Positions 8,680 through 42,939 of a DNA stretch of 44,410 nt are shown in pieces (position 1 is the stretch's first letter; each line of letters begins with the position of its first letter). Both the position numbers and the translations under genes were made by a program. Source of the DNA: Methanobacteriota archaeon (lineage in GTDB: Archaea > Thermoplasmatota > Thermoplasmata > Lutacidiplasmatales > UBA184); contig JABCYU010000003.1 in NCBI GenBank assembly GCA_013290045.1, positions 1-44,410 on the forward strand, in the 5' to 3' direction. The notes beneath the pieces are model-generated. The model had not been told where the DNA came from. It ran no database searches and was given only the letters and a program-made list of their open reading frames with translations.

Positions 8680-8699
8680 GTTGCAAGGAACCTTTCACT
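8680..8699. repeat. Palindromic core site GTTGCAA-GGAACC-TTTCACT
   Basis: Intergenic variant of GGTGCAA-N6-TTGCACC. Confidence 0.55.
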
Positions 8700-9038
8700 C
8701 CGCTCCCGCTGCGAAACCGGCATGGGCTAGCGAACCGCCCCAAGGTGCCCCGTCGAGGCTTCTCGAACGTCAAGATGACGATGGCCAACGACGAGGGGAC
8801 CGACAACCAGGCCGTCCCGAGCTCGCTCATCCTCCCGGGGAGCCCGTTCTCGGTCGCCTGGAAGTCGTACGGACCGTGAGACGTCCGAACTTGAATTCCC
8901 AACCACTTCTCTCATTTCTTTCTCCGGTCATCGGGCGCAACCCGAGGGGGACCTCTCGACCGTGGCGCGGATCGGACGGGGTGAGCCGTCCACCGTCTCC
9001 TTCAGTTAGAGCCGGGTCCTGTCTCGCTGTCGGAGGGG

Positions 9039-9058
9039 GTTGCCACGAGGGTTGCACC
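9039..9058. repeat. Palindromic core site GTTGCCA-CGAGGG-TTGCACC
   Basis: Intergenic; flanks extend the symmetry (ggaggg...ccctcc). Confidence 0.65.
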
Positions 9059-9194
9059 TCCCTCCTCGCCGGATCCACGTCGATGCATCGGGGATTGGCT
9101 GCCCCATGTGGAGAGATCGAGGGCCTGTGGTACGGGCGTGAACAACCAACGATTATCCCAGACGACCAGGTCCCGCCGCCCGGAAGTCGGTCAG

Positions 9195-10535
9195 ATGACC
9201 GGAGATCGGATTCGGATGACAGGAGGGGCAACCGCCGGCGCGCTCGCCGTGCTTGCGGTGGCCATGTTCCTGATCGTCCCCAGCGTCGGAGCCACGGCAC
9301 CGCCGAAAATGCCCGCCTTGACCCCCCAGCCACCCCCTCGCCCGCTGCTCAGCGCCTCCGAGCAGATGCCCGCATTCCTCAATGGATCGATCGTGAACAC
9401 GATCTACCTCCAGGGGAATTTCGTGGGTACGGTCAATGGTACCAACGCCACATTCGGGATGGAGCCGATGGTCGGTCTCCCCGCCATCGGGGTCACCCCC
9501 AACGTCTACCCGACCGCTCGGGCGAACATCCACCCGTTCATCGCGCTAGTGCCGTGGTGGGGCCCCGCCAAGAAACCCTACGACCCCGCCTACCACCCGG
9601 GAGCCTATGGGATCCGGGAGATGTGCGCGCCCGCGACCCGGGCGGTCTGCTGGGACCACCCCTCGACCATCATCGTGCCAGGGCTCGGCAACGTCCCGTT
9701 GCCCGGTCACGACCACTTGATCACGACGGCCGCGGGATTCCATGACACGTGGTGGAACCTCGAGATCGTCCTGGTCCTGAACCAGACGTACTGGCCGAAC
9801 CTGAACGGAGTCGGGACCCACGCGATCACGTCGGCCGCCGCCCTGGCAGCGGCCCAGACGGCCAAGGCGGCGAGCGGGGCCCTCGGAACGAACGATTTCC
9901 TGAACTTCGCGGTCGCCACGGTCCAGGGGGGCTACACCCCTACTCCCGTCGCGGGTACCCCGGCGCTCCTGAAGCAGGAGCTCATGCCGGCGTTCCTCGG
10001 AGGAAAGGTCGTCAACACCCTCTACGAGAACGGTTTCTTCACGAGCAGCAACGCCTCGAGAAGCCCGATGTTCGGGATGGAACCACTGCTCAGTGAGCCC
10101 GGGATCGGCGCCCCCGATATCCACGACCCGATCGCGAACCACTTTGAGCCCCCGTTCATCGTGCTGGTCCCATGGTGGGGACCGTCGAGCGCGCCCTACG
10201 ATCCCGCGTACCATCCCGCCGCCTACGGGATCAAGCTGATGTGCGCCCCGGAGTCGATCTCGGTCTGCTACGACCACCCGACGACGATCAACGTCTCGGG
10301 GCTCGGCGTGGTTCCGTTGCCGGGCCACGACCACCTGATCACGACGTCGGCCCACTTCACGGACACCTGGTGGAGCCTCATCGTGGTGCTCGTGACCAAC
10401 AGCAGCGTCTTTCCGGACCTGAACGGGTCCCATGGGATCACGTCCCTGGCGGCGCTGACGGCCGCCCAGGCCGCGGGACAGGCGTCGGCGGACCTCGCGA
10501 CGAACACCTACCTGAACTTCGAGGTGAATCCTTAG
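9195..10535 (+). CDS. Secreted protein of two tandem ~205-aa repeats with Cys/His motifs (putative metal-binding)
   Basis: Signal peptide; MPAFL.G, PWWGP...PYDPAYHP.AYGI..MCAP....VC[WY]DHP and PLPGHDHLITT each occur twice; start could be 9108, 9195 or 9216. Confidence 0.85.
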   Translation: MTGDRIRMTGGATAGALAVLAVAMFLIVPSVGATAPPKMPALTPQPPPRPLLSASEQMPAFLNGSIVNTIYLQGNFVGTVNGTNATFGMEPMVGLPAIGVTPNVYPTARANIHPFIALVPWWGPAKKPYDPAYHPGAYGIREMCAPATRAVCWDHPSTIIVPGLGNVPLPGHDHLITTAAGFHDTWWNLEIVLVLNQTYWPNLNGVGTHAITSAAALAAAQTAKAASGALGTNDFLNFAVATVQGGYTPTPVAGTPALLKQELMPAFLGGKVVNTLYENGFFTSSNASRSPMFGMEPLLSEPGIGAPDIHDPIANHFEPPFIVLVPWWGPSSAPYDPAYHPAAYGIKLMCAPESISVCYDHPTTINVSGLGVVPLPGHDHLITTSAHFTDTWWSLIVVLVTNSSVFPDLNGSHGITSLAALTAAQAAGQASADLATNTYLNFEVNP

Positions 10536-10709
10536 GTAGGATTGGCCCTCCTCCCAGCGCCCGAGGGGGAGCCTGACGGCTCCCCCTCCAACTGTTTCTG
10601 TGTGGACTCCTCGCCCTTGGGGCGTTCCAACGAGCCCGATATGGGCCCGTGCTGTTGTGGCGCGTTGGGAATACATCCCCTCAAATCCGACCACCGCCCA
10701 TCGACGGAC

Positions 10710-11759
10710 GTGGAACTCAGTAGCTTCTCTCTCCTCGACACCTACCCCGGTCAAGGGGGTGGTCGCCGGCAGCCCTTTCAGGAGTTCCTCGACCTCGTGC
10801 AAGTCTCGGAGCGATGCGGACTTGCGGGGATCTGGGTAGCCGAACACCACTTCCAGTCTGGCGGCGTTTGCCCATCGCCACCCGTCCTCCTCGCCGCGGC
10901 CGCCCAACGGACGCATCGCCTCCGTCTGGGATCGATGGTCGGCGTGCTCCCCCTCCACGACCCCGTCCATTTCGCTGAGGAGTACTCGCTCGTCGACCAG
11001 TTGTCCGGCGGGCGGCTCCGGTTGGGGGTCGGGAGCGGATACGTGCCACGCGAGTTCGCCGGATTTGGTATCGACGCTGGACGCAAGCGGGAGATCTTCG
11101 ACGCCTCCCTGTCGGTCGTGCTGGCGGCCATGTCGGGGAAGTTCGTTCGGGGCCCTCGCGCCACGAGCCAACGGGTGCGTATCAACGTGCGACCCGTCCA
11201 GCGACCTCACCCCCCCGTCTGGATCGCCGCCCAGAGGGCCGAAGCGGTGCCGTTCGTGGCGGCCCGGGGATTCTCCGTGGCCCTGGTCCCTTACGCGAGC
11301 GCGCCGGACCTCCCAGGCCTCGCCCGCGTCGTGCGCGCCTTTCGTAGGGCGTCGCCCCCGGGTTCCAACGCCCAGGTGGGGGTCGCCGTCCACTTTGGCG
11401 CGGGCATCGACCCGAGGCGGGGCCGCACCGCGCTCCAGCGCTACCTCGACTCGCGGATGACCGCTCGAGGCAGCTTCCTTCGGGACGCCACCCCCGTCCC
11501 ACCCCATCCGGTGAGCGCCGAACGGCTCGAGGAGCAGGGATTCGCCCTGTTCGGGAGTCGTGGCGCGATCGAGGCCGGACTCGAACCGTTCCGCCGAATG
11601 GGAGTGGACGAGATCTTGGGGCACTTCGATTTCGGGGGGCTCCGCACGATCGAGGTGCACGGGTCGGTCCAAAAGCTAGCCGAGGTCATGGGCTCGGCGA
11701 GGATCGCGCTGGAGTCGGCCCCCCGGGGGCCCGAGCTCGGCGCGGTCTCTTCCGCCTAG
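10710..11759 (+). CDS. LLM-class flavin-dependent oxidoreductase (luciferase-like)
   Basis: WVAEHHF; PSPPVLLAA.A.RT.RLRLG; DQLSGGRL.LGVGSGY...EF..FG; RPVQRPHPP.W; GTG start at 10710 inferred. Confidence 0.92.
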   Translation: MELSSFSLLDTYPGQGGGRRQPFQEFLDLVQVSERCGLAGIWVAEHHFQSGGVCPSPPVLLAAAAQRTHRLRLGSMVGVLPLHDPVHFAEEYSLVDQLSGGRLRLGVGSGYVPREFAGFGIDAGRKREIFDASLSVVLAAMSGKFVRGPRATSQRVRINVRPVQRPHPPVWIAAQRAEAVPFVAARGFSVALVPYASAPDLPGLARVVRAFRRASPPGSNAQVGVAVHFGAGIDPRRGRTALQRYLDSRMTARGSFLRDATPVPPHPVSAERLEEQGFALFGSRGAIEAGLEPFRRMGVDEILGHFDFGGLRTIEVHGSVQKLAEVMGSARIALESAPRGPELGAVSSA

Positions 11760-11769
11760 TTGTGGCATC

Positions 11770-13314: not shown

Positions 13315-13442
13315 GGCGAATTTCTCAGCCCCTGTCGGACGCACAGTTTTCCTCGCGTGAATCGGGGTCGGCGCGGGCTCCGGGGGGCACCTTTTCCCTC
13401 TCGGAGAGCGCGCCCCTCCAAACCCGCAACCGGGATTGCACC
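13315..13442 (+). repeat. ~120-bp dispersed repeat ending in core site CCCGCAA-CCGGGA-TTGCACC (13423-13442)
   Basis: Aligns by eye with 17807-17890 (+) and 42815-42939 (-); lies between convergent genes. Confidence 0.75.
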
Positions 13443-15064: not shown

Positions 15065-15084
15065 GGCGCAATCGAAATTGCACC
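15065..15084. repeat. Palindromic core site GGCGCAA-TCGAAA-TTGCACC, with a weaker neighbour GTTGCGA-ATTGAT-TCGTAAC at 15116-15135
   Basis: Intergenic, near-perfect consensus match. Confidence 0.75.
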
Positions 15085-17806: not shown

Positions 17807-17890
17807 TGATTCGGGGCCGGGAGGGGCTACGGTGGGGGATGTTCTTCGGGAAGAGGCGCGCCCCTCTGAACACGCAACTGAGTTTGCACG
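17807..17890 (+). repeat. Dispersed repeat copy ending in core site CACGCAA-CTGAGT-TTGCACG (17871-17890), upstream of the integrase
   Basis: Shares TG..TCGGGG.C, GGGCT, GCGCGCCCCTC and the core site with 13315-13442. Confidence 0.75.
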
Positions 17891-18032
17891 GGCCTGCTGA
17901 CCATCCTGGGACGACCTGCTCTACCGTCCCGTTCGCTACCGGTCGGTCTCGGGGAGCACGTCGGTTCGGTCAGTAGCCATCGTTCAGCGGAGGGAGCGAG
18001 TCCAAGACCGCAGGTCTCCACGGCACCCCTCG

Positions 18033-19052
18033 ATGTCGCAGTCCAGGACCCCGAGGGGGGCGAGGACTCAACGCCACCAGGGGCATCCCCGCTCGCTGCT
18101 GGGCGGGGGGTCGTCGAGCGCGAGCGGTTCCTTCCCGACCGGAGGTCATTCCGGGGTTGAGTTTGGGTTGGACAGGGCCCCGCCCCGAACCGAAGAATGG
18201 ACGTCGGAAGTCACCCGATTTCTGGCTGCCAAGGACAAGGAGAGTCCGGTCGGAGAGAACTGGAAGAGGCGGATGCGATGGGAGCTCTCCCGAGTTCCCG
18301 ACCTCCTCCAGAGGCTCAGCCCGGCGACGACGCCCTCGAGGGCGGCCGATCTGAATTCAGATCACGTCCTTGCTCTCCGGACGGGGATGGGTTGGGAGAA
18401 GGCCACTCTCGCTCTCCACTTCGCGGCCCTACGGCAGTTCCTCGCGTGGGCCGGGAATCCCATCGCGACCCGGAAGAGCGTTTGGAGGTTGCCGTCTGGA
18501 CAGTCGAGCCGGCGGAGGTGGTTAACGAAAGACCAGTTCGAACGGTTGCTCTCCGCCGCAGTTGGTCCCGCAAAGGCTCTCGTAGCACTGGAAGGGCTGA
18601 ACGGCCTGCGACGCGTAGAGGTCCTGCGCCTGCGGAAGAAGGACGTACTGCTGGAAGAAGGCTGTCTCCGTGTTCTGGGCAAGGGGAGGGACGGCGGGAA
18701 GTGGCGGACGATTCCGATGCATCCAGAGGTTCAGTCCTTCCTGTCCGACTTCGTCATCAAGCTGGATCCGGAAGCCAGACTCTTTCCGGTAAGTCAATCT
18801 GGCGCAGACGGGATGCTCCGCCGGGCGGTCGATGCGGCCGGCTTTGGGGGAGAGGGGGTCCGAATCTCCCATCATGACCTCCGGCGAACATTCGGCAGAA
18901 TGGCTCATCAGTCGGGAATGGATCTCATCCAACTGAAGAATCTCTTCGGCCACAGTTCGGTGGAGATGACGGTCCACTACATCGGGATCGACGCAGACGA
19001 GATGCGCTCTGGCCTAAACCGAATCAGGCTCGGAACGAGGCCAGGTGAATAG
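18033..19052 (+). CDS. Tyrosine recombinase/integrase (Xer-like)
   Basis: Complete catalytic set: GLRRVE (R), GKGR (K), HDLRR (HxxR), LFGHSS (H), TVHYIG (Y); the true start may be downstream. Confidence 0.95.
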   Translation: MSQSRTPRGARTQRHQGHPRSLLGGGSSSASGSFPTGGHSGVEFGLDRAPPRTEEWTSEVTRFLAAKDKESPVGENWKRRMRWELSRVPDLLQRLSPATTPSRAADLNSDHVLALRTGMGWEKATLALHFAALRQFLAWAGNPIATRKSVWRLPSGQSSRRRWLTKDQFERLLSAAVGPAKALVALEGLNGLRRVEVLRLRKKDVLLEEGCLRVLGKGRDGGKWRTIPMHPEVQSFLSDFVIKLDPEARLFPVSQSGADGMLRRAVDAAGFGGEGVRISHHDLRRTFGRMAHQSGMDLIQLKNLFGHSSVEMTVHYIGIDADEMRSGLNRIRLGTRPGE

Positions 19053-19319
19053 GGGTGACCATGGGAGATGGGTCCGTCTCCGACCGGGCCAGGAGTCGTG
19101 AAGCCTGCCACGGGCTCCTAGAAATCGTTCGTCACTTCCGAATCCACCGGATCCGGGAATCAGGTGCCCGCTGAACTTCGAGTTATCCAAGAGTGTCAAG
19201 ACTGGGTTGTGCGACGAAGAAGGCCGACGCCCAGGGCGGTGGGACGGGTTGGGGTGTCTACTGAACCGATGGCCAGGAAGTTCGTGGTGCGGGACGGTTC
19301 ACGCACCCAGACGCCCGGT

Positions 19320-19664
19320 TCAAGGTCGTTGGGGGCGGGTGCCCAAGAGTCGGAGCGCACGTCGGAGACCTGGATAGGTGGTCGCATCCCTGCGAACGAT
19401 TCGGATAAAGGCTACAACATCTCCTTCAACGACAGCATATATGGCCCGGTAGCCAGGATCGTTCGCTGCCGGTCGAATGTCAATACGGGAGAGTATGTGT
19501 GGTCCCTCAAGGGATTTGGTCTCGTATCCCCGAAGCAGGTCGGTGGGGGGAACCAGCGGGTGGGTTTCGAGTTCGTCAAGAGCCCACTCCAAGATGCGCC
19601 TCGCAGCGGGGGGCAAACTATCTCGCTGAAGGCCAGACCTTCCGAGGAAGAGGATACGGCTCAC
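19320..19664 (-). CDS. RelE/ParE-family toxin
   Basis: RelE-like size and pattern (L..HP...TK.LEG...SRI...GYRAIY.V...I.RR..TY), downstream of a small antitoxin. Confidence 0.75.
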   Translation of the reverse strand: MSRILFLGRSGLQRDSLPPAARRILEWALDELETHPLVPPTDLLRGYETKSLEGPHILSRIDIRPAANDPGYRAIYAVVEGDVVAFIRIVRRDATTYPGLRRALRLLGTRPQRP

Positions 19665-19672
19665 TTGCGGCT

Positions 19673-19906
19673 CTATCTACTCGATCGAGACCGTCGGCTG
19701 ACTCTACGAGGAACTCCTTTGACCCTTCCTTTCCGGAAATCCTCGAGGACCCGATGAGCGTGCTTTGCATCCTCTCGGTCCATCTCCCGCTCGAGAAGAT
19801 CGAGCAGGAATGCGTCCCAGTTCTGGGCCCCCGTCTTGAACTCCTGAAGAACTCGGAGAGTCGACGTGTGGACCGGCACGCTCGTAATCGGGTCGACGGC
19901 CGACAT
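19673..19906 (-). CDS. Putative antitoxin (RHH-like; T.VPV...T...L...KT...WD.FL..L)
   Basis: 77 aa; paralogous to 42526-42762; upstream palindrome ATCATT-N5-AATGAT at 19922-19938. Confidence 0.75.
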   Translation of the reverse strand: MSAVDPITSVPVHTSTLRVLQEFKTGAQNWDAFLLDLLEREMDREDAKHAHRVLEDFRKGRVKGVPRRVSRRSRSSR

Positions 19907-20186
19907 GGCATGGCTCAGGACATCATTGTATTAATGATTTTCACCAATATCGAGATCGCGTCCTTCCGACCTCTCGGCCCTATGCCACGAAAGCCCGCAC
20001 GCCCTCAGCTTGCCGCATCCCAGGAACGGTCACTGCTCAAGGTTGTTCTCCGGCGAGGGGCGGCACGCCCATAACTCGGCAAAAGTCTCCGACGCCCTCG
20101 AGAACTCTTGCTTCGATGCCATCCGACGGGCGTCGTTCAGGCATTGCTCCGAGGTGGCAAGCCTGGATTCAACCTATTCGCTTGCG

Positions 20187-20206
20187 TGTGCAACTCTCGC
20201 TGCACC
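20187..20206. repeat. Palindromic core site TGTGCAA-CTCTCG-CTGCACC
   Basis: Intergenic consensus variant. Confidence 0.7.
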
Positions 20207-20280
20207 TCTCCCCACTCCCAGGGGCCCCGTCGTCGGAGAGTTCAGTCGGAGTTGCGCCTAGGTGCCGCCTGCGCCCGACA

Positions 20281-20300
20281 GGTGCAATGGGGGTTGCACC
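20281..20300. repeat. Perfect palindromic core site GGTGCAA-TGGGGG-TTGCACC
   Basis: Exact 7-bp inverted arms around a 6-bp spacer. Confidence 0.8.
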
Positions 20301-20361
20301 GCACGCGAGAGGTCCGTCCGAACCGGCGTCTTTAAGGGATGCCACGTAATACGCGTAACAG

Positions 20362-20568
20362 ATGGCCCTCGAGGTCCTCTACAGTCGACATGCAAGGCAA
20401 AGGATGGTGTTGCGGGGCATTTCGAGCGATGAGGTCGAGATTGCCATTCGGACGGGTGCGAAGTCCCGACAAGGCCCCAGAGTCGTCGCGGCGCATAGCT
20501 ACTTCGAAGTAGTCTATTTGGTAAGGGGGCGCAAGATTATCGTGATCACGGTGAAACCAAGATGGTAG
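20362..20568 (+). CDS. DUF4258-like (RelE-fold) toxin
   Basis: YSRHARQRM..RGIS..EV..AI..G; VITV; TTTAAG box at 20331-20336. Confidence 0.8.
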   Translation: MALEVLYSRHARQRMVLRGISSDEVEIAIRTGAKSRQGPRVVAAHSYFEVVYLVRGRKIIVITVKPRW

Positions 20569-20906
20569 CGAAGGCAGAGAAGTGCCCGGTCTGTGGGAAG
20601 GGTAGGCTGAAGCCGGCAATGGTCCATGAGGAGATGTTCGGGGTGGAGCTCGGGAACTACCCTGGGGAGGTGTGCTCCAATTGCGGGGAGACATTCCTCA
20701 CGACCGAAAGTATGCGGGCCATTGAAGTGCGCGCCAGGGAGTTGGGCCTCTGGGGTCTCGCCTCCAAGGTCAAGGTCGCAAGATCGGGCAATTCGCTCGT
20801 AGTTCGAATCCCGGCTCCCCTAGCCCAGTACTTGAGATTGAAGAAGGGCCAGGAAGTCATGGTCAGCCCTGAGAAGGAAAACCGGCTCGTGCTAGAACTC
20901 GCCTGA
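20562..20906 (+). CDS. YgiT/MqsA-type Zn finger plus AbrB/MazE domain antitoxin
   Basis: CPVCG...VCSNCGETF; KV.RSGNSLVVRIP..LA..L.LK.G.EV; overlaps the toxin gene. Confidence 0.85.
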   Translation: MVAKAEKCPVCGKGRLKPAMVHEEMFGVELGNYPGEVCSNCGETFLTTESMRAIEVRARELGLWGLASKVKVARSGNSLVVRIPAPLAQYLRLKKGQEVMVSPEKENRLVLELA

Positions 20907-20926
20907 GCCAACCCATCGGGGAGGTG

Positions 20927-20946
20927 GGTGCAAGGACAATTGCAAC
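20927..20946. repeat. Palindromic core site GGTGCAA-GGACAA-TTGCAAC
   Basis: 20 bp after the TA stop codon. Confidence 0.8.
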
Positions 20947-21339
20947 CCTCGGCGCAAGAGAAGCGGAATGTCCCTGCCTCCGCAGCGCAAGGTACCAGAA
21001 TTCGTGCAACGCTTGTTGGGCGGTTTGGAGAACTCATCTCGCGAGCTCCTGAAGGCACTTATCGAGACTCGGATCGCACCCGATCGCCGCGAGAAAGACT
21101 AGTCTCCCGGCGGCCCTTGCCCGCACAGTCATTGCGGTCACCCTCTTCAAGCGCTAGTCCTTTCGATCGCATGGGGTCGGTGAAGGGGAGTCAAGAGGAA
21201 GGGACCGAAACCATGCCAGCCCACCGTGTCACCTGCGTAGCTTCGAGATGGTGCCGGACCCTTTCGACTCCTAACGGACTAGAGTTCCATCCCAAGTCTC
21301 GGACCGCTTATCAGCCGCCAGCCTCTACGGTGACCCCCC

Positions 21340-21963
21340 ATGGAGCACCACGCCAGCGCAATTGAGATCCTCGAACGCGCACGCCAAACGTTGGCAGTTG
21401 CTGAGAAGGGCGTACAGGACCTCAGGGGAAAGGACCCGAGCCGGTGGTTACCCGGACTTCTGAACGTCGCCGTTTTCGGGCGAGCAGTAACCAATATTCT
21501 CCAGAATCTTAGGTCCGTAGACCAAAAGTTTGACCCATGGTATGCTCCGAAGGTACTCGAGATGCGGGCGGACAAGCTGCTCCGGTTCTTCTACGAGCTC
21601 CGAACTGAGGTGCTCAAGACGGCTAGACGCGTTCCTACCGCGCACAGAACCCATATCAAGCACCTTGAGCTCCCAAAAGACCTCGCGAGGATGGGACCGA
21701 AGCCTCCCGGAACGACCGGTTTCTTCATCGGAGATTCGGCGGGCGGCTCCGGATGGTTGGTGAGGCTGCCCAATGGAACGCAAGTGCCGTATTACGTGGA
21801 TCTCCCGGATGACATCGGGGTGGTCGACATGACTATTAGAGGCGCCCCCTTGCTGCATCTGGGACAACCTGTTTTGGATGATTCGGCCGCGTCGCTCTCC
21901 TCTTTGTATGTGAACTACCTCCGGAATCTCCTTGACGATGCAGACAAGGTGTTCGGGCATTGA
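21340..21963 (+). CDS. Hypothetical protein, possibly HEPN-like helical domain
   Basis: 207 aa; 'FGRAVT..LQ...F..WY...FF.ELR..VLK' pattern; no canonical RxxxxH. Confidence 0.7.
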   Translation: MEHHASAIEILERARQTLAVAEKGVQDLRGKDPSRWLPGLLNVAVFGRAVTNILQNLRSVDQKFDPWYAPKVLEMRADKLLRFFYELRTEVLKTARRVPTAHRTHIKHLELPKDLARMGPKPPGTTGFFIGDSAGGSGWLVRLPNGTQVPYYVDLPDDIGVVDMTIRGAPLLHLGQPVLDDSAASLSSLYVNYLRNLLDDADKVFGH

Positions 21964-22217
21964 TCCCTGACTCCGCATTCTTGATGGAGACGTTCAGTAC
22001 GACTCGGGATTGCCATGACCCTACCAACGACAGGACTACGAGCCACGAAGGGAACCAAGCCTGCCATGAAGACAGGATCAAGAGGAGTCGGAGTGTTTGG
22101 GTTTACCCCGAGCCTAAAGCGATCTCCATTCGAGCCTTACCCAGTGCATCGCCACTCAGCCAAGTCGCGGACTGCATGGAACGAATGCGCCCGACCTTGC
22201 CCGTCGCGGACTGAGCC

Positions 22218-22781
22218 ATGAAATCCCGTGCCAGCGGAACAATCGCGGTCGCGAGTCGACAAGTGGAACTGTTCGCCCGAGAGTGGAGCCTCCAGCCGCA
22301 TAGATGGTGGTACGAGAGAGATGTAGCGGCTGAGATTTCACGGAGAATCTCGGACGCGCTCGGGCCGCGGCGGAGTAAGGTTCCATTTGATGACTTGGAA
22401 ACCTATTCCGAACCTCATTGCAGTTGTGGTCATGCTGGACGCGTAAGGATCGATCACCCGATTTATGGATGGGACAAGGTACGATACCCGAAGCGACCCG
22501 ACATCGTGATTCACCCAGACGACCCCGAAGATCCTTACCCCTGGGTCTGTGAAATCAAGGTTGGATCAACGCCTCGAAAGGACTTGAACGGGGTAAGCGA
22601 TGAGGAGAAGGTCCTACGTCTTCTGGGTGGTCCCCGCCCCGTCGTCCTAGCGGGGACAGTCCTGGATATGCGGATTCCAACCCCACCCCGACTTAGGGGG
22701 TCGGTGTCCCGTTCGTTCTCCCTCGGGGGTCGTCTAACAAAGTACTTTGTAGAAGCAAGGCAGCCAAACCCAAATGTCTAG
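22218..22781 (+). CDS. Putative PD-(D/E)XK nuclease
   Basis: YERD helix, RPDIVI and CEIK motifs. Confidence 0.6.
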   Translation: MKSRASGTIAVASRQVELFAREWSLQPHRWWYERDVAAEISRRISDALGPRRSKVPFDDLETYSEPHCSCGHAGRVRIDHPIYGWDKVRYPKRPDIVIHPDDPEDPYPWVCEIKVGSTPRKDLNGVSDEEKVLRLLGGPRPVVLAGTVLDMRIPTPPRLRGSVSRSFSLGGRLTKYFVEARQPNPNV

Positions 22782-28807: not shown

Positions 28808-28834
28808 CCTTTCGACCGCGTCCGAGGGCGGCGA

Positions 28835-28896: not shown

Positions 28897-29223
28897 CACC
28901 TGGATCCTTACGGGCCCTTCGGGTGGTGGTAAGAGGTCGCCTTGCACTTTCGCCTCGACCAACCCCCCCCGGGCCCCGCCCAAGGGTCGCAGGAGAACAG
29001 AGTACTGGGGCCGGGAAGGTCTCGCCTGTTGGCTCGAGCCCGACTCCACTGAAACCCCAGAGATCGGGTCAGGAACAGGCGCGAGCAGACGAGCCGGAAC
29101 CGAGGGCCGACCTGAATCGTGGGTGGCCGGGGCGGCTAAACCGGACGAGTTCAAGTCCGCCTGAACCTTCTGACGAGGGGCATCGAGATGACGACGGTTC
29201 CCAGCTGGCTGCTGCCGTGGGAG

Positions 29224-29649
29224 CTAAACCGGGCATCTCATGTCGAATCTCCGGCAGAGGTCGCGAAGCCCTCCCGCCCACATCTCCGCCTTCTGCGCAG
29301 CGGCTGACTTGAAGTCGGCGTCTATTGGGACCCGATCTATCAAATGCGTGTTCCTTGCCCGCTCCTTCCCATCGAGCCGCTGGTGTCGCCTCACGCTACT
29401 TTCTAGCATCGGGACCAGAGCTTCCGCCTGACGTTGATCGAGGTTGAAAACGTCGTCGTACCTGGCAAAGCCACGCGTGGAAACGTTCGGGAAGTATTCG
29501 GCGGTGAAGTCCGAGTCATCATGGCAGTAGTACTGTAGGGCTTGGCGAATGACTCCCGCGGTGATCGGAGTGAGCAGACGGCCCCTGGGGGTCGGATCCA
29601 TGGGTTCAGATGCAGGCGCAGGCCCGACGGACGGCTTCCCAGCGCTCAT
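29224..29649 (-). CDS. Hypothetical protein translationally coupled to the upstream RHH protein
   Basis: ATGA overlap at 29646-29649; protein-like composition. Confidence 0.65.
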   Translation of the reverse strand: MSAGKPSVGPAPASEPMDPTPRGRLLTPITAGVIRQALQYYCHDDSDFTAEYFPNVSTRGFARYDDVFNLDQRQAEALVPMLESSVRRHQRLDGKERARNTHLIDRVPIDADFKSAAAQKAEMWAGGLRDLCRRFDMRCPV

Positions 29650-30194
29650 TTCCTTTGACCTCCGCGGCCAGTCGTAACTTGGCCGGCCTTGGTTCGCCGC
29701 GATTCCTGTTCAGTCAATGCCTCGACGAACTTCTTGGCGAGGACGAGCGACTCGACCTCCTCGCGACGACGGGATTTTTCCGCTTCTATCGCTGTGAAGA
29801 AGTTCTTCAGGATCTGGTTCGGCCTCAGGAAGCTCACTGATGCGGCCTTGACCGAAACGTTGTACACGGTGTCATCGTCATCGGACCGGGTAGGATCTTC
29901 GCAAAGGAGGCCATCTACGCCGTAGGAGACGGGAACTGATTCTTGGATCGCCCCGTCCCAAAATGTTCCAACAACGACCTCGCAGTGAAACTTCTGAATG
30001 AGGGGATCCATGCTCGTGAGTAGTTCCTCGTACTGCGACCGTGTCGCTCCCCTCTCCAGGCGCTCTGGATCGAAGGTGTAGCCCTTCAGAATGCGTTCAG
30101 TCAGCTCCGAGATGTTCAGGCCAAGCTTCTTGGCCGCCTCTACGGTGTCGCCATCAACGGTCAGCGTCAGCTTCTGCTTAAGTTCGGGAGGCAT
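29646..30194 (-). CDS. CcdA/DUF6364-like RHH domain protein with long C-terminal extension
   Basis: KQKLTLTVD.D.VE.AK.LGLNISEL.E; ATG at 30194 preferred. Confidence 0.75.
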   Translation of the reverse strand: MPPELKQKLTLTVDGDTVEAAKKLGLNISELTERILKGYTFDPERLERGATRSQYEELLTSMDPLIQKFHCEVVVGTFWDGAIQESVPVSYGVDGLLCEDPTRSDDDDTVYNVSVKAASVSFLRPNQILKNFFTAIEAEKSRRREEVESLVLAKKFVEALTEQESRRTKAGQVTTGRGGQRK

Positions 30195-30244
30195 ACGTGG
30201 GGTAGCACGTGCCAGGATATAATGTACACGTGTTCGCACACGTG
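30194..30244. promoter_or_regulatory. Two pairs of (C/T)ACGTG boxes flanking a TATA-like TTATAT; putative RHH operator
   Basis: Boxes at 30194, 30206, 30227 and 30239 (12-bp spacing within each pair). Confidence 0.55.
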
Positions 30245-30444
30245 CCTCACACAAACCAGCCCCCGCGTGGGAGCCAGTCCCATCCGACCTGCGCGAGTCC
30301 GGTCGCAGACCACCCTTCGAGCATCGTCAGGTCGATGGAAGGGCACCTGCAGCTCGGACCGGGCAGGTTGTGGGGGTAGCAACCAAGTAAGGAACGGGGG
30401 CAAAGTTTTCCGTGGCACCCTGGATTACCCTCGAAGCCGTTCGG

Positions 30445-31443: not shown

Positions 31444-31463
31444 GGCGCATCGGAGGTTGCACC
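31444..31463. repeat. Palindromic core site GGCGCAT-CGGAGG-TTGCACC
   Basis: Sits in a 64-bp intergenic gap; central 14 bp identical to 22866-22879. Confidence 0.75.
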
Positions 31464-34491: not shown

Positions 34492-34511
34492 GGTGCAATC
34501 AGCATTTCAAC
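34492..34511. repeat. Palindromic core site GGTGCAA-TCAGCA-TTTCAAC
   Basis: Between the divergent MTase and REase genes. Confidence 0.6.
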
Positions 34512-34533: not shown

Positions 34534-35676
34534 ATGTCTTCGGCGGGACAGCGGCTGACCGAGTTCTTCGCGACTCTTGACGTCGCTGGCGATGAGCCGA
34601 TAGGAAAGCCTGCGGGAGCGCTTCCCGAAACCCTTAGGCCAGCCTTCCCCGACGCGAAAGAATTCTACGACCTGCTTGGCCAAGTGCAAGCCGTTGGCAG
34701 TAGAGCACACGACGTGCCAAGTCAAAAGCACATCCTCGCTCTAATCCTAGAAAACGACCCGCGATTGTTCTTGGTCCTGTCCCATCTGCATAGACAGATT
34801 CGATTCACCAACGTAGAGATAGCTCGAACCTTGTTCGACCCGAAACGGCTCGATGACCCCGACTACTACACTGGAGCACTCACCCGCGACCCCGAGTTTC
34901 GGAGGGCGTACTCGAAGGCCCGAAAGTGGCGAGAACTCGAGCTTTCGGGGGTGAACTCGCGGACCGGAACCCTAGCGGCGGGCAAGAAGGCCATCAGCGG
35001 CTACATGGGCTCTGAAGAAAGGTGTTGGGAGCTATGGCTCTCACGGATTCGATCTGACCCAGAGACAAGGGAAAGGGTCATCGACTACCTATTCGACCAT
35101 GAAGATCTAGGGGAGCTGATACAGGAGGGTGCCATAGAACAAGCCCTTCGCAGGAGCCTACGTACTACGAATGTCGAGAAGGTGAAGTCCCTCCGCGGAA
35201 CATTTGGAGCTGGGAAGATACGACGAATCCTCCAGGAGGGAGGATTCACCTCGACCGACCACGAGGGGGAGCAGAGCGACATCTCGGACCTGCCTCAACT
35301 CGCGAAGAGAAATGCGCTGGTGGGACCCCTGTTCGCCAGCGAGGTGAACTGGGAGAAAGAGAAGCGCTTCGACTTCGCCCTCTTCAACCAGCGTGAGGTG
35401 CGGTTCGTGGTGGAGACCACGTACTACTCCACTTCCATGTCGAAAATCGGCGAGGTGATCAAGCACTTCGAAGATTTGCGGGCGAAGTGCGCGGACAGCT
35501 TCCATCTCTTCTTCCTCACCGACGGGATCGGTTGGTTCGGCAAGGTGAAGGACATTCGTAGGATGCTGGGCTTTGGAGCCGAGGCGGCAGATGGCACCGG
35601 TCAGTTCCCATATCTGCTAACATACCATCAATTCACCGACCTGTTGCCGGAAATCACCAAGGCTCTCAACGGCTAA
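34534..35676 (+). CDS. DpnII-family type II restriction endonuclease
   Basis: KRFDFAL...VETTYYS.S.SK..E...F.FLTDG.GW matches the DpnII C-terminal signature; adjacent to Dam-like MTases. Confidence 0.85.
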   Translation: MSSAGQRLTEFFATLDVAGDEPIGKPAGALPETLRPAFPDAKEFYDLLGQVQAVGSRAHDVPSQKHILALILENDPRLFLVLSHLHRQIRFTNVEIARTLFDPKRLDDPDYYTGALTRDPEFRRAYSKARKWRELELSGVNSRTGTLAAGKKAISGYMGSEERCWELWLSRIRSDPETRERVIDYLFDHEDLGELIQEGAIEQALRRSLRTTNVEKVKSLRGTFGAGKIRRILQEGGFTSTDHEGEQSDISDLPQLAKRNALVGPLFASEVNWEKEKRFDFALFNQREVRFVVETTYYSTSMSKIGEVIKHFEDLRAKCADSFHLFFLTDGIGWFGKVKDIRRMLGFGAEAADGTGQFPYLLTYHQFTDLLPEITKALNG

Positions 35677-35787
35677 TGGATCAACCATGAAGTGGTCCCG
35701 CGTAAGGCTGGGGAGGTAACTTACATCGAAATGCGGTACATGACTTCATAAAGCGGCCCGGGTTGGAGGAAACGCCCTTCGGAGCAA

Positions 35788-37368
35788 ATGCCGTCAGGTG
35801 AGTGGATACTCGATACGTCCCCGACGAAGCGGGTCTACTACTCCATAATTGCCGATTATGGGCTGAACCTCGCGATTTGCGAACTCGTGGATAACGTGGT
35901 CGACTCTTGGACCCGACGAGGGCGACCGGGAAAGGCGCGTGTCACGATCGATATCGATCTCGACCAACAGACCATCAAGATTGCAGACAATGCGGGGGGT
36001 GTTCCTCGGAATGAATTGCAATACATCGTCGGACCGGGTCATACAGGCAACGATCCCGCGGATCCCTCGATCGGCATATTCGGGGTCGGGACCAAGCGAG
36101 CAGTCGTTGCGCTCGCCGAAGATACTCAAATCAGGACGCGCTTTGAGGAAAAGCCGACCTACAAGATCCGCCTTGACCAAGCGTGGCTTGAACTCCAGTC
36201 CTGGGACCTGCCCTACGAGGTAGCCGGAGACATCGACCCGAATAGCACCGTTATCGAGCTGAGCAGGTTAAGGAAACCCATAACCACAGAGGAGCTAGCA
36301 GGACTCAAGGCCCATCTCGGGGCGACTTACGCCCGATTCATAGATTCGTCGAAGTTGGGGATTCAGTTTCAGGGCGAAACAATCGAGTCCATCCATTTTG
36401 AAGCTTGGGCCTTCCCCCCGGAGTATCGACCTAGACGATACAGAGGTACCATCGACGCAGGCGTCGATGGTCAGGTCAGAGTCGACATGACCGGAGGCCT
36501 AACTCAAGAATCTAGTCCGGGCACCGGGGAGTATGGTTTGTACGTCTACTGCAACGGCCGCTTGGTAGGCCGCGCGCTCAAGGGCGCGGATGTGGGCTTT
36601 ACGAAGGGGCTTGTGGGCATGCCACATCCCGACATATCTCTTACGAGATTAATCGTCTTGTTGGACGGTCCGGCTAAACTCATGCCTTGGAACAGCAGCA
36701 AGTCCGGAATTAACACCCAGAGCGGAATCTTCCAATTGCTTCAGGGTTGGACGATCCCGATTCTCAAGTCTTTCGCTTCGGTATCGCGGGGGTTGTCGAA
36801 AGTCGATGGTTCTTGGCGCGAAAACGTGTTCAAGTTTGACCACGGTTCTCCCGAGGAGCGTCCGCTTGGCAATTCGCCTCAGGTCGCACGACTTCATCTT
36901 CCACCGATCCCCAAGTCGAAACCGAGATTGGCCGAACGCCTTGCAAAACTAAACGAACCGGTAACCACAGCCAAACCCTGGACACGAGGCCTGTTTGAGG
37001 GCGTGGCCGCCGCGCGGCTGATCGCATCTGGCCGCTACGAACAAGGGAACAGGATTGCACTGATTGTGCTGGATTCGACCCTGGAGATAGGGTTCAAGGA
37101 GTTCCTGGTCAACCGGGGGGGTGGAGGATATTCAGATACGCGCTTGCAGGCCATATTTTCCAATCGCAGGCTTGTTGACGACGAGATTCACAAGGTCGCA
37201 AAGTTCCCAAGGAAGGAGCTGGCTCAGATTCGCTTCTATTACAACCTAAGATGCGATCTCATCCATCGAAAGGCTTCTATTTCAATATCGGACAATCAGA
37301 TCGCCGATTACGCCGACATCGTGGAGAAGGCACTCAGGAGGTTGTTCGGGTTGAAATTCTCCGAGTGA
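35788..37368 (+). CDS. GHKL (MORC/Hsp90-like) ATPase fused to a C-terminal HEPN domain
   Basis: ICELVDNVVDS, IADNAGG, IGIFGVGTKRA, STVIEL; S5-like YVYCNGRLV; C-terminal LIVLD..LE...K.FL...YNLRCDLIH (RxxxxH). Confidence 0.88.
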   Translation: MPSGEWILDTSPTKRVYYSIIADYGLNLAICELVDNVVDSWTRRGRPGKARVTIDIDLDQQTIKIADNAGGVPRNELQYIVGPGHTGNDPADPSIGIFGVGTKRAVVALAEDTQIRTRFEEKPTYKIRLDQAWLELQSWDLPYEVAGDIDPNSTVIELSRLRKPITTEELAGLKAHLGATYARFIDSSKLGIQFQGETIESIHFEAWAFPPEYRPRRYRGTIDAGVDGQVRVDMTGGLTQESSPGTGEYGLYVYCNGRLVGRALKGADVGFTKGLVGMPHPDISLTRLIVLLDGPAKLMPWNSSKSGINTQSGIFQLLQGWTIPILKSFASVSRGLSKVDGSWRENVFKFDHGSPEERPLGNSPQVARLHLPPIPKSKPRLAERLAKLNEPVTTAKPWTRGLFEGVAAARLIASGRYEQGNRIALIVLDSTLEIGFKEFLVNRGGGGYSDTRLQAIFSNRRLVDDEIHKVAKFPRKELAQIRFYYNLRCDLIHRKASISISDNQIADYADIVEKALRRLFGLKFSE

Positions 37369-37447: not shown

Positions 37448-37467
37448 GGTGCAAAGCGGATTGCAAC
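37448..37467. repeat. Palindromic core site GGTGCAA-AGCGGA-TTGCAAC
   Basis: 80 bp after the GHKL-HEPN stop codon. Confidence 0.8.
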
Positions 37468-38676: not shown

Positions 38677-38696
38677 GGTGAAAAGTGTATTGCACT
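38677..38696. repeat. Palindromic core site GGTGAAA-AGTGTA-TTGCACT
   Basis: Between convergent genes; shares GTGTATTGCA with the 42157 site. Confidence 0.65.
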
Positions 38697-40828: not shown

Positions 40829-40936
40829 CGGCGGGGAAGGGAGAGTTGAATCGGTAGATTAAACTTACTCATGCGTAACACGAGGCTGAGTAATGTCGGA
40901 TGCGTTCGTCTGGCCGCGACTGGCCCAGGCGCACGC

Positions 40937-42105
40937 TAGTGTCATTTCTAGGGCGGTAGAGTAGGTTCTGCCGGACCGCAAAGGCTAGTGCCGGGGAGTG
41001 CTCCCTCCCCGGGCATGGTGCTCCGGGTTCGAGAGATCTCCAATGAGGAAGGCAACCGGCTCCGGACCGCGATCCGACACTCGAAAGACCTCATCGAGAT
41101 GAAACGGGCCCAGGTGATCCTGGGCTCAGCTCAGCGGTTCACCGTCCAGAAGATCGCTATCTTCTCGGGAATGTCCGACGGCTACATTCGGATCCTGATT
41201 CACGCGTTCAACGAGGAGGGGCTCGCGATGCTCAAGCCCCGATGGAATCCAGGACATCGCACCAAGTTTTCGAAGGAGACTCGGGCACGGCTGGTGGCGC
41301 TGGCCACCGGCCGACCTCGGGACCTGGGGCTCCCCTTCGGTCAGTGGAGCCTACGACGCCTTCGGGACGCCGCGGTGGCGAGGGGCATCGTGGACTCGAT
41401 CTCCCTCGAGTGGCTGAGGGTCATCTGTGACGAGGCGGACGTCACGCACCAATCGATCCGGACATGGAAGGAGAGCAAGGACCCGAAGTTCGAGGAGAAG
41501 AGGGCGCGGATCGACCGCCTCACGGCGAAGCGGCACAACCCCCCAGTCGTCCTCAGTATGGATGAGATCGGCCCGATCTCCCTCAAGCCCCACGGCGGCA
41601 AGGGGTGGTTCAAGAAGGGGCTGCCGGGACGGATCCCAGCGACCTACAAGAAACAGAGCGGGACACGTTACGAGTACACCTGTCTGAACGTGTTCCATCA
41701 GACGTTGAGCGTCAAGCAAGAGGAACACAAGGGCGGAGCGATCTGGCTACGATTCATGAAGTACCAACGCTCGAAATACTCTCCCGACCAGAGGGTCTAC
41801 ATCATCCAGGACGGACTCAGCGCCCACTGGACTCCTGAGGTGAGAGCGTGGGCGAGGGTCCACAAGGTATCCCTCGTCTCCACGGCCACCGACGCCAGTT
41901 GGATGAACCCGGTGGAGTGCCACGCCGGACCACTCCAGGTGGCGGCGATGGCCGGGAGTGATTGGTGGAGTTGGGGCGAGGTGGACGAGGCGTTCCGGAG
42001 GGCGGCTCAACTCATCACGCGAGAGCACAAGGCATCAGGGAAGGAGTTCAGGAGCACCCAACACAAGGTCAGCAAACATCGTCGGCCGCTCTGGACGCGA
42101 CACTA
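40937..42105 (+). mobile_element. IS630-family insertion sequence (complete copy)
   Basis: Imperfect terminal IRs (CTAGTGTCATTTCTAGGGCGG vs CTAGTGTCGCGTCCAGAGCGG, 16/21); CTAG target with TA duplication; left end identical to 44284-44410. Confidence 0.92.
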
Positions 42106-42106
42106 G
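41015..42106 (+). CDS. IS630-family DDE transposase
   Basis: HTH domains, WSLRRL, SMDEIGP (D), IQDGLSAH (D), WMNPVE (E); stop codon uses the right end/target TAG. Confidence 0.95.
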   Translation: MVLRVREISNEEGNRLRTAIRHSKDLIEMKRAQVILGSAQRFTVQKIAIFSGMSDGYIRILIHAFNEEGLAMLKPRWNPGHRTKFSKETRARLVALATGRPRDLGLPFGQWSLRRLRDAAVARGIVDSISLEWLRVICDEADVTHQSIRTWKESKDPKFEEKRARIDRLTAKRHNPPVVLSMDEIGPISLKPHGGKGWFKKGLPGRIPATYKKQSGTRYEYTCLNVFHQTLSVKQEEHKGGAIWLRFMKYQRSKYSPDQRVYIIQDGLSAHWTPEVRAWARVHKVSLVSTATDASWMNPVECHAGPLQVAAMAGSDWWSWGEVDEAFRRAAQLITREHKASGKEFRSTQHKVSKHRRPLWTRH

Positions 42107-42156
42107 GTGCTGACTGCCGCCCTCCGGGGAGTAGAGAATCTAGCGCACCCAACTCG

Positions 42157-42176
42157 GGTGCAAGGTGTATTGCAAC
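42157..42176. repeat. Palindromic core site GGTGCAA-GGTGTA-TTGCAAC
   Basis: 27 bp past the RelE stop, between convergent genes. Confidence 0.8.
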
Positions 42177-42202
42177 TTTCGCGAGGGAGGTGCGTGGGTT
42201 GC

Positions 42203-42523
42203 CTACTCGCTCGCCTGCGCGTTGCCGGAGTAGAGTCGAGCTCGGTCCCGCAGCTTGAGATAGAAATCGGCCCTTGGGCCGAAACCCAGGAGTCGAATGA
42301 CACCACCCTCGACACGAAAGTACGCTCTCCTCTGAGGGTGGCGAAGTTTGAGCTTCCACAGGCCGTCCGCCCCAGAGAGTTCCTCGACAACGAAGCCTGG
42401 CCCCCCTCTAAACGGATGTTCGACCATTTGCCGGAGAGCGTCCTCGAAATCGTACCGATCCTGTCGTGAGAGGGCTAGGTACTCTTCGCGTGCTCTTGGG
42501 TGGAAGGATAGCGCGTAAGGCAC
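42203..42523 (-). CDS. RelE/ParE-family toxin
   Basis: Y.L.FHP.A..E...L...L..HPF...L.G..GLWKL....RAYF.V...GPR.DFY. Confidence 0.85.
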   Translation of the reverse strand: MPYALSFHPRAREEYLALSRQDRYDFEDALRQMVEHPFRGGPGFVVEELSGADGLWKLKLRHPQRRAYFRVEGGVIRLLGFGPRADFYLKLRDRARLYSGNAQASE

Positions 42524-42525
42524 GG

Positions 42526-42762
42526 TCAGCGCCGAGGTCTACGCATCGAACGGCTCTGGTGAAAGACGTCGTCGCCTGCGATATCTTTGGAGGCCGAGGT
42601 TCGAGACCGACGCTCGAGTTCTTCCACCCAGGATCGGGGCACATAGTCGCTTGCCAGCTCGAGGAGGAAGTCGTCCCAAGTCTGGTCCGCTGTCTTCAGA
42701 GTTCGCAGGCGCTTGACGACCTCGGCGTGCACTGGAATGGTTGTGAGGGTGTTCGAGGCCAT
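42526..42762 (-). CDS. Putative antitoxin (paralog of 19673-19906)
   Basis: TTIPVH.EV..RL..LKT..QTWDDFLLEL; ATG at 42762 preferred. Confidence 0.78.
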   Translation of the reverse strand: MASNTLTTIPVHAEVVKRLRTLKTADQTWDDFLLELASDYVPRSWVEELERRSRTSASKDIAGDDVFHQSRSMRRPRR

Positions 42763-42814
42763 GGTAGTGATGGTCAATGACGCTCATGGTTAAGAATCTT
42801 GCCGACCGCCGCGA

Positions 42815-42939
42815 GCTGGAAGGTGTCTTGCGTGAATGGAGGGGCGCGCTGGTCACCGAGGAAAACCCCCCTCCAGAGCCCTTCCTGACCCCGATGCAGG
42901 GCCGAGAAAACCGATTCGCCCTTCAGACGGGAGTTCGCC
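42815..42939 (-). repeat. Reverse copy of the ~120-bp dispersed repeat, ending in core site 42815-42834 (GCTGGAA-GGTGTC-TTGCGTG)
   Basis: Reverse complement aligns with 13315-13442 (GTTTTC.TCG, TG.ATCGGGGTC, GGGCTC, AGCGCGCCCCTCCA, C.CGCAA). Confidence 0.75.

Follow-up and report, generated by a model that had tools for sequence, protein, structure and literature searches.

A 44,410-nucleotide stretch of archaeal DNA, hereafter the window (Methanobacteriota archaeon; GTDB lineage Archaea, Thermoplasmatota, Thermoplasmata, Lutacidiplasmatales, UBA184; assembly GCA_013290045.1, contig JABCYU010000003.1, positions 1–44,410 of the forward strand), raises the question of what is done by a short palindrome, GGTGCAA-N6-TTGCACC, that recurs between its genes. 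A reading of the sequence alone had listed 21 such palindromes and suggested that they cut the region into gene modules that are captured and shuffled by a tyrosine recombinase, either the integrase encoded at 18033–19052 or the host XerA. As set out below, the palindromes are clustered far beyond chance, lie at the boundaries of small gene modules in large chromosomal arrays across the genus, coincide with breaks in homology between genomes and co-occur with an integrase family; we therefore consider it reasonably probable that they are tyrosine-recombinase core sites that delimit exchangeable modules and that the linked integrase acts on them.

A palindromic motif is concentrated on one contig

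The window is part of a 2.2-Mb genome assembly of 183 contigs (G000), and the other 2.18 Mb of this genome, scaled to 44.4 kb, served as yardstick. G-numbers denote the 150 genomes of the same genus, G000 included, and L-numbers denote fetched loci. The 20-mer GGTGCAANNNNNNTTGCACC has 12 matches with ≤2 mismatches in the window, compared with a mean of 0.05 in dinucleotide-preserving shuffles, none of which (0/100) reaches 12; the core TGCAA-N6-TTGCA has 17 matches with ≤1 mismatch, compared with 0.36 in shuffles (largest 3). Measured against the rest-of-genome rate, the excess is confined to the better matches: 12 with 0–2 mismatches (0.14 expected), 5 with 3 mismatches (0.87 expected), 19 with 4 mismatches (9.6 expected, i.e., a class about 2-fold over background) and 62 with 5 mismatches (68 expected). 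Among the 21 palindromes originally listed, 17 have ≤3 mismatches, where about 1 would be expected at the rest-of-genome rate, so the claim of clustering beyond chance stands and these 17 sites are solid; the two at 17871 and 22863 (4 mismatches) are plausible, and the two at 15116 and 42815 (5 mismatches) are at background and have to be given up. Across G000 as a whole there are 22 core matches, and the fact that 17 of them lie on the window contig excludes a genome-wide operator or REP-like element. The GC content of the window is ∼0.66, dropping to 0.56–0.60 past ∼18 kb. Another piece of array from the same genome is probably represented by contig C73 of G000 (5640–9838), where a paralogue of the window's kelch gene, 76% identical to it, is followed by sites at 8642, 8765 and 9819 (≤3 mismatches).

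The listed sites along the window, given without strand, are as follows.

8680–8699, site, 3 mismatches (GTTGCAA-N6-TTTCACT)
9039–9058, site, 2 mismatches
13423–13442, site, 3 mismatches, between convergent TrmB-like and kelch genes
15065–15084, site, 1 mismatch
15116, listed site without support, 5 mismatches, background level
17871–17890, possible degenerate site with 4 mismatches, 1 of them in the core, individually not separable from background; the integrase gene starts 143 bp downstream
20187–20206, site, 2 mismatches
20281–20300, site, perfect match
20927–20946, site, 1 mismatch
22863–22882, possible degenerate site, 4 mismatches, GCAT-cggagg-TTGC in common with 31444, individually not separable from background
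22906–22925, site, 3 mismatches, core perfect
27580–27599, site, 2 mismatches, spacer TCGTCC
27741–27760, site, 3 mismatches
28835–28854, site, 3 mismatches, next site 42 bp on
28877–28896, site, 1 mismatch, in a convergent gap
31444–31463, site, 2 mismatches
34492–34511, site, 2 mismatches, in the divergent gap between N6_N4 methylase and DpnII-like endonuclease genes
37448–37467, site, 1 mismatch
38677–38696, site, 2 mismatches
42157–42176, site, 1 mismatch
42815, listed site without support, 5 mismatches, background level

Sites often form close pairs, 26–110 bp apart with no gene between them, as at 15065/15116, 22863/22906 and 28835/28877 in the window and also in G007, L028, L031 and G145; they look like the empty modules seen on Acinetobacter plasmids or like accessory binding sites.

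Arrays of sites occur across the genus

At ≤1 mismatch, the motif is present in 0–38 copies in the 150 genus genomes (0–3 for a reversed control pattern), and 63 of the 150 have none, a distribution that is not that of a chromosomal dif, of which there would be one per chromosome wherever XerA is present; the relatives are all metagenome-assembled, and the fragmented ones under-report arrays. In related Thermoplasmata genomes the arrays extend over 60–105 kb and hold 24–33 sites at ≤2 mismatches. Their edges can be sharp: contig C1 of G010 has 29 sites (≤3 mismatches) within 679,896–749,949 but is free of them over the preceding 24 kb and the following 26 kb, and the array on contig C2 of G007 (616,659–675,591) is preceded by 56.7 kb without a site. 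G003 has two arrays, on C1 (13,114–118,197) and on C3 (188,779–260,614). Because the array-bearing contigs of these contiguous assemblies are 0.7–2.3 Mb long (orc1 is on them too), the arrays are chromosomal. The genes flanking the arrays of G003, G007 and G010 are partly syntenic, which suggests that these are related loci whose content has turned over. In some species a variant site, GGTTCAA-N6-TTGAACC, is found (28 copies in G140, 15 in G154, 10 each in G111 and G161 and 8 in G136), and hybrid sites are also present. The picture of a system restricted to a local island thus holds within G000, where the motif is local, but not for the genus, in which the arrays are a recurrent chromosomal feature with more than one type of site.

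Candidate carriers outside the genus, viral ones included, were rejected. The out-of-genus matches (L001–L007) all lie inside long open reading frames (ORFs) of lower-GC genomes and are ascribed to chance, and of the 118 IMG/VR stretches that match exactly, each one listed has a single site, as expected by chance. Within the genus, two sites in different arrays of one genome (G043:C4:308591 and G043:C9:306155) agree in 25 consecutive nt, spacer and immediate flanks included, while the DNA on both sides is unrelated; exchange between arrays may have left this trace, or the match may be due to chance, and an explanation of the two contigs as haplotypes was discarded because they have no other homology in common.

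The sites are 26-bp palindromes at module boundaries

To define the site, we made a logo of 106 sites. In this logo, the palindrome reaches 3 bp past the searched arms on each side, with 0.2–0.7 bits at positions that were not used in the selection, so that the full site reads gTG-GGTGCAA-N6-TTGCACC-CAc, i.e., 10-6-10 and 26 bp in all. The arms are reverse complements of each other with inner ends CAA-N6-TTG, the spacer is variable, and nothing is conserved beyond the ±3 flanks. This layout is close to the 11-6-11 of dif (PMC11840125).

Genes were mapped with a crude longest-ORF/GC-frame caller combined with Pfam, all starts being longest-ORF estimates. Although 82–88% of each array span is covered by ORFs, 71 of the 106 sites have no overlap with ORF candidates and 10 overlap them in part; the sites that count as inside ORFs are in weak small ORFs or at the 5' ends of longest ORFs. 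For the window itself, the assertion that all sites are intergenic needs some qualification: of the 12 best sites, 6 are clear of all ORF candidates and none lies in the body of a Pfam-supported gene, but the other 6 are in weak small ORFs without a Pfam family or in the first 3–50 nt of a longest ORF. About 30% of gaps between genes carry a site, in all four orientations (34/94 for ++, 28/93 for --, 23/73 for +- and 21/74 for -+), and there is no fixed distance to the nearest start (-113 to 1434 nt) or stop (-4 to 1247 nt). The sites are hence not promoter operators, as had been argued from the convergent gaps: these are used as often as divergent ones, and those in the window (13423, 28835/28877, 38677 and 42157) agree with the gene map. 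The median distance between sites is 2.1 kb, and the intervals hold 1–5 genes in 78 of 101 cases, none in 9 and 6–15 in 14, in either orientation. The tight bracketing of the kelch, DUF4258/AbrB, UbiA-cluster, Swt1-HEPN and restriction endonuclease plus GHKL units of the window by consecutive sites is likewise borne out by the gene map.

When the sites of the window and of the G003, G007 and G010 arrays are pooled, there is a weak polarity in the otherwise palindromic site, in that 47 sites have a G at spacer position 2 without the symmetric C and 22 have the reverse. Similar spacers within the arrays of the window, G003, G007 and G010 are in direct orientation in 48 pairs and inverted in 14. 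The weak polarity may reflect a preferred orientation of sites within arrays.

Homology between genomes often breaks at the sites

Breakpoints were taken from all-against-all BLASTN comparisons among arrays of different genomes, which belong to different species, so that recombination can be neither dated nor assigned a direction. Of 121 ends of homology blocks, 25 are within 5 bp of a site, compared with 1.5 under random placement (maximum 7 in 1000). To what extent does this merely reflect the intergenic position of the sites? When 127 ends are classified by location, 28 belong to gene cores, 44 to gaps that lack a site and 55 to gaps that have one, 22 of these within 5 bp of the site and 33 farther away; site-bearing gaps make up 164 of 680, and a 30-bp target is ∼8% of the mean gap, so the 22 of 55 ends in such gaps that fall at the site itself exceed what intergenic position alone would give.

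Individual cases illustrate the pattern. A 2.1-kb cyclase-TPR block (87% identity) extends from site to site in both G003 (60188–62343) and L028 (2941–5058), with unrelated neighbours, and L025 and L026 are 96.6% identical from the first base of a site, the DNA before it being unrelated. A three-way junction is seen at site L028:6772, where the left flank is that of G003:81013 and the right flank that of L031:4659; the spacers (ggggca, ggggcg and ggcgcg) differ by 1 base, which would fit exchange between near-identical spacers. Other pairs with a shared flank, from different species, have unlike spacers (3/6 and 1/6 positions identical). The close relatives G145 and G003 have in common an 11.4-kb collinear stretch that includes the integrase, followed by module replacements with some breakpoints at sites (e.g., 20113/90413) and others not. 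Identical spacers flanking inserted DNA, a candidate integration signature, are not enriched within arrays.

Strain-level data come from the assembled contigs of two public soil metagenome runs that hold the region, X1, the likely source, and X2, from another study. The X2 strain is 95–99% identical to the window, and its contigs cover 18031–20010, 20279–20944 and 27628–28720 but not 20945–27627, where the lack of coverage is no evidence of absence. They leave the window sequence at 20279 (a site starts at 20281) and after 20944 (a site ends at 20946), which means that a near-identical strain has the toxin-antitoxin module between the same two sites with different DNA beyond. The loose end of the X2 contig before 27628 has the spacer TCGTCC, the same as in site 27580. 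Both between genomes and against this strain, then, homology breaks at the sites, as one would want of module boundaries.

One X1 contig (2.9x) joins 21577 to 30284 with 12 other letters between them, neither end being at a site; it may stem from another organism or from a rare rearrangement. A scan of metagenome contigs for the integrase returned 9 loci, of which the closest is 69% identical; none is a relative at strain level.

An integrase family accompanies the arrays

The recombinase gene and its neighbours in the window are the following.

18033–19052, + strand, Xer-like tyrosine recombinase, 339 amino acids (Pfam PF00589, E=2e-17)
19673–19906 (77 amino acids, no family) and 19320–19664 (114 amino acids, ParE match only at E=0.024, below cut-off), - strand, two small ORFs, possible toxin-antitoxin pair

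In an alignment of 26 orthologues of the integrase, the catalytic R, K, HxxR, H and Y are conserved. Its best NCBIfam match is XerA_Arch at 80 bits (the cut-off, 220, is not reached), and it is far from the IntI models (37.4 bits for TIGR02249, cut-off 265; 25 bits for NF011946, cut-off 435). The nearest solved structures are those of Pyrococcus abyssi XerA (4a8e, E=1.8e-10), XerH, IntI4 and Thermoplasma acidophilum XerA. The host XerA is a separate protein (G000:C16:13008–13787, 240 bits against the cut-off of 220).

The proposal that a Xer-like integrase family goes with the arrays is upheld by the 149 other genus genomes, of which 36 have both ≥3 motif matches and the integrase (E≤1e-40), 11 the motif only, 30 the integrase only and 72 neither (odds ratio 7.9, Fisher 1e-7, for related genomes that are not independent). 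Leaving out G019, G147 and G148, which are flagged as unpublished, changes the table to 36/11/29/70 and leaves the result unchanged. The integrase gene is at the border between core and array in G007, G011 and G137 and within the array in G003 and the window. The integrases of the two variant-site genomes that have one (G111 and G140) form a clade with 100/100 support on a long branch, apart from the 24 others, and this tree suggests that site variant and integrase have matched specificity.

The segment 19740–19915, which overlaps ORF 19673–19906, is kept at 72–85% nucleotide identity across many genomes of the genus, a much higher level than in the remainder of the island. The two small ORFs may be a widespread toxin-antitoxin pair adjacent to the integrase.

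A recombination model and its alternatives

In the model that we favour, the 26-bp palindrome would be a Xer-type core site, with two inverted binding arms on either side of a 6-bp crossover spacer: two recombinase monomers would occupy the inverted 10-bp arms, with strand exchange across the spacer as in Xer, Cre and integrases. Binding, spacer cleavage, the intermediates and the identity of the enzyme are inferred, the array-linked integrase (18033–19052 and its orthologues) being the favoured candidate and host XerA the alternative. In these soil Thermoplasmata, the sites flank units of mostly 1–5 genes in chromosomal accessory-gene arrays, 35 to >100 kb in size, whose cargo comprises toxin-antitoxin pairs, restriction-modification, HEPN nucleases, cyclases, regulators and prenyltransferases. 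A module would leave its replicon or array as a circle or via a cointegrate and recombine with a resident site of matching or near-matching spacer, and gain, loss and replacement of modules at the sites would make the array a platform for storing and shuffling genes. We propose that the variable spacers render most resident pairs incompatible, which would keep arrays of tens of sites stable and would account for the lack of enrichment of identical-spacer pairs.

A number of observations speak against this model. Within arrays, pairs of identical spacers are not enriched (2 direct and 1 inverted, where the null gives 1.9 each), and with spacers that vary so widely classical exchange between resident sites should be rare. 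Most homology block ends (96 of 121) are not at sites. No direct product of recombination was seen: circular, inverted or excision junctions, which the sequence-only reading had led one to look for, are missing at the sites in the X1 contigs, assembled contigs from which rare variants could escape. As regards the enzyme, 11 of the 47 motif-rich genomes, including G107 with 34 sites, have no integrase at E≤1e-40, and the only homologue in G010 is 36% identical and lies 38 kb away from the array. No site is found at a conserved distance from the integrase, i.e., there is no attI-like primary site. The genus genomes not being independent samples, the Fisher p-value overstates the case, and the co-variation of site and integrase rests on two genomes that are possibly just sister species. 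Finally, site 34492 splits the restriction endonuclease from its methylases, which would put the two activities in different modules and is an awkward spot for a frequently used crossover.

Could the sites be recombination sites worked by the host dimer resolvase XerA, as XerCD works the Acinetobacter pdif sites, with the integrase a passenger or concerned with island integration only? G000 does have the bona fide XerA described above, on another contig, the 11 motif-rich genomes without the integrase fit this explanation, and the 6-bp spacer and the AA/TT inner arm ends resemble dif (PMC11840125). We nevertheless think it unlikely. Known archaeal dif keeps TAA-N6-TTA, whereas the sites here have CAA-N6-TTG; genomes without arrays would still need a dif but lack the motif, the identical single match in array-less G002 and G005 lying inside a conserved gene and being put down to chance for that reason. 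A shared 11-(6–8)-11 palindrome within 8 kb of xerA was sought in G000, G003, G007 and G010, and only unrelated GC-rich palindromes were found, with no dif-like one common to the four genomes. A position at the chromosome terminus was also rejected: in 4 genomes the best orc1/cdc6 gene is 125–800 kb away from the arrays, which do not consistently lie opposite it. The co-occurrence of arrays and integrase, too, speaks against host XerA.

The remaining alternatives do without recombination. The palindromes might be bound by a dimeric protein, be it an island repressor or silencer, an insulator or a structuring factor of the MatP/matS or XerD/XDS kind, and might coincide with module boundaries by lying between transcription units; the palindromic, sequence-conserved arms, the strictly intergenic sites and their clustering in low-GC, horizontally acquired DNA would all fit, and in bacteria there are dif-like sites that bind XerD and act on SMC (PMC11840125). 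We hold this to be improbable, in view of the lack of a preferred gap type or a fixed distance to starts, of the limited share of array gaps (∼30%) that carry a site, with several divergent promoter gaps having none, and of the 22 of 55 homology ends within 5 bp of a site, which such a protein does not predict. Even less can be said for hairpins in RNA or single-stranded DNA, serving as bidirectional terminators, processing signals or targets of HUH transposases (IS200/IS605, REP-RAYT), an explanation that we regard as very improbable: a 10-bp stem with a 6-nt loop can be folded on either strand, and the sites are extragenic like REPs, but the logo has no T-run after the stem, divergent promoter gaps are used as often as convergent ones, the stem is conserved in sequence and not through compensatory change, no Rfam family matches, none of the 5 array-bearing genomes searched has a Y1 transposase (PF01797), and REPs are dispersed genome-wide, whereas 17 of the 22 matches here are on one contig.

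Modules of the window and their cargo

In addition to the integrase and its neighbours, the principal features of the window are the following.

20362–20906, + strand, toxin-antitoxin module, DUF4258 plus AbrB/MazE-like, spanning from site to site (20281/20927)
22926–27579, no single strand, four-gene module including a UbiA prenyltransferase gene (23996–24862, - strand)
27884–28807, + strand, Swt1-like HEPN protein, single-gene module (PADLOC candidate PDC-M34B)
34534–37368, + strand, DpnII-like restriction endonuclease plus GHKL ATPase module
40931–42110, + strand, IS630-like insertion sequence (HTH plus DDE_3 transposase), within the last full module, right end 46 bp from site 42157

The modules contain a kelch gene; GNAT and AAA ATPase genes; the integrase with its small ORFs; the DUF4258/AbrB toxin-antitoxin pair; the UbiA cluster; Swt1-HEPN; CcdA-like and HNH genes; two DNA methylases; the DpnII-like endonuclease and the GHKL ATPase; an esterase, HepT/MNT and the insertion sequence; and a DUF7557 pair. 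Modules of G003 that recur in other arrays include a cyclase-TPR protein and an ArsR/AHSA1/RibD_C operon. Taken together, the contents of the window and of G003 indicate that the cargo is accessory genes in general, beyond defence alone. Two of the original assignments were not confirmed: that the GHKL protein contains a HEPN domain and that 42203–42523 encodes RelE.

The DUF4258/AbrB module has homologues at 65–70% nucleotide identity in 13 of 13 fetched genus loci, and in 10 of these a site (≤3 mismatches) lies ∼0–170 bp from a module end; there is none in L022, L023 and L034. The segment 32476–35676 resembles a DpnII-type restriction-modification cassette, with a D12-class Dam methylase, an N6_N4 methylase and the DpnII-like endonuclease. 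ORF 9108–10535 (475 amino acids, no Pfam family) has an internal 380-bp duplication (9533–9913 and 10151–10525, 70% identity). No tRNA is present in the window that could serve as an att target.

A second copy of the IS630-like element starts at 44284 and runs to the contig end (44284–44410 is identical to 40936–41062, 127 bp), and further copies occur in G000 on contigs C64 (79% identical), C8 and C58. The contig break was probably caused by this repeat, and since the contig ends in it, the array may continue elsewhere.

Comparison with known gene-capture systems

The closest known system that we found is that of the Acinetobacter dif modules, in line with the pdif analogy drawn at the outset. 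There, too, short inverted arms with a 6-bp spacer lie between small modules, toxin-antitoxin genes are common, some breakpoints fall at the sites in different contexts, and some modules are empty or very short, as are the site pairs 26–110 bp apart described here. According to PMC13141974, the same Acinetobacter module is found in different contexts with junction sites of identical or near-identical spacers, and a logic of module circles and cointegrates has been proposed and partly demonstrated. The differences are substantial. The Acinetobacter modules reside on Rep_3 plasmids and depend on host XerC/XerD, whereas the arrays described here are archaeal and chromosomal (on contigs of up to 2.3 Mb), in hosts with XerA and not XerCD; the Acinetobacter sites have distinct XerC and XerD halves (11-6-11) and alternating C/D modules, whereas here a single palindromic arm sequence (10-6-10) recurs without alternation. 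The present arrays are also far larger (24–33 sites at ≤2 mismatches, 60–105 kb) and co-occur with what is predicted from its sequence to be a dedicated Xer-like integrase.

Integrons and CALIN, including the archaeal ones (Ghaly et al., 2022), are likewise large chromosomal arrays of accessory genes (toxin-antitoxin and defence genes among them) with a repeated site that is similar within lineages, and have a tyrosine recombinase at or in the array, some arrays being without integrase. IntI, however, has an additional domain, whereas the integrase here is far below the IntI model cut-offs and nearer to XerA. An attC site is an extended element of 57–141 bp with the arrangement R''-L''...L'-R' and a GTTRRRY core (PMC9668308); the sites here are simple 26-bp palindromes with an arm, TTGCACC, unlike GTTRRRY, as judged by the logo. 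Integron cassettes are mostly single, co-oriented, promoterless genes read from Pc, whereas the modules here have 1–5 genes, their own promoters and mixed orientation (94 ++, 93 --, 74 -+ and 73 +- gaps), and the attI of integrons has no counterpart near the integrase. The array is not an attC integron, and in this respect the sequence-only reading was right; its further impression that integrons were undescribed in archaea needs correcting, given that archaeal integrons with canonical IntI and attC are reported in PMC9668308. The main text of that paper does not contain 'Thermoplasmat', and its Data S1 may list Thermoplasmatota integrons. In the literature searched, which was covered incompletely and without supplements, we found no description of arrays of the present kind in archaea.

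Xer/dif and the IMEX elements that use it share with our sites the inverted arms, the 6-bp spacer and the AA...TT inner positions, the recombinase here being nearest to XerA, XerH and XerD, and successive integration at a regenerated site would build arrays. A dif site, on the other hand, is present once per genome and in archaea has TAA-N6-TTA; here the sites number in the tens and lack TAA-N6-TTA, genus genomes without arrays do not have the motif, and the arrays are not opposite orc1. Shufflons (Rci/sfx) resemble the arrays in combining one tyrosine recombinase with many short clustered sites, but their sites are within coding segments and support inversion only, whereas here the sites are intergenic and module content differs between genomes.

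Tentatively, and with slightly less than even confidence, we suggest that the arrays represent a gene-capture platform of independent origin, a third one alongside integrons and dif modules, which takes up as much as ∼1/10 of a chromosome (∼105 kb plus 72 kb of 1.8 Mb in G003), with self-expressed modules, a dedicated Xer-derived integrase, spacers as address codes that restrict the pairing of sites, and site and integrase that co-diversify between species (TGCAA and TTCAA types). If this is true, exchangeable accessory genes for defence, toxin-antitoxin, signalling and metabolism are kept in archaea in a chromosomal store run by a recombinase, with a mechanism closer to that of Xer/dif than to that of integrons, and the modular turnover of archaeal genomic islands would have a concrete mechanistic basis. 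A single 26-bp motif would then be a simple marker for flexible gene pools in uncultured soil archaea, and the arrays would offer a natural set of short orthogonal recombination sites together with a compact recombinase. They also make it testable whether Xer-type module shuffling, documented so far mainly in Acinetobacter plasmids, is a general strategy.

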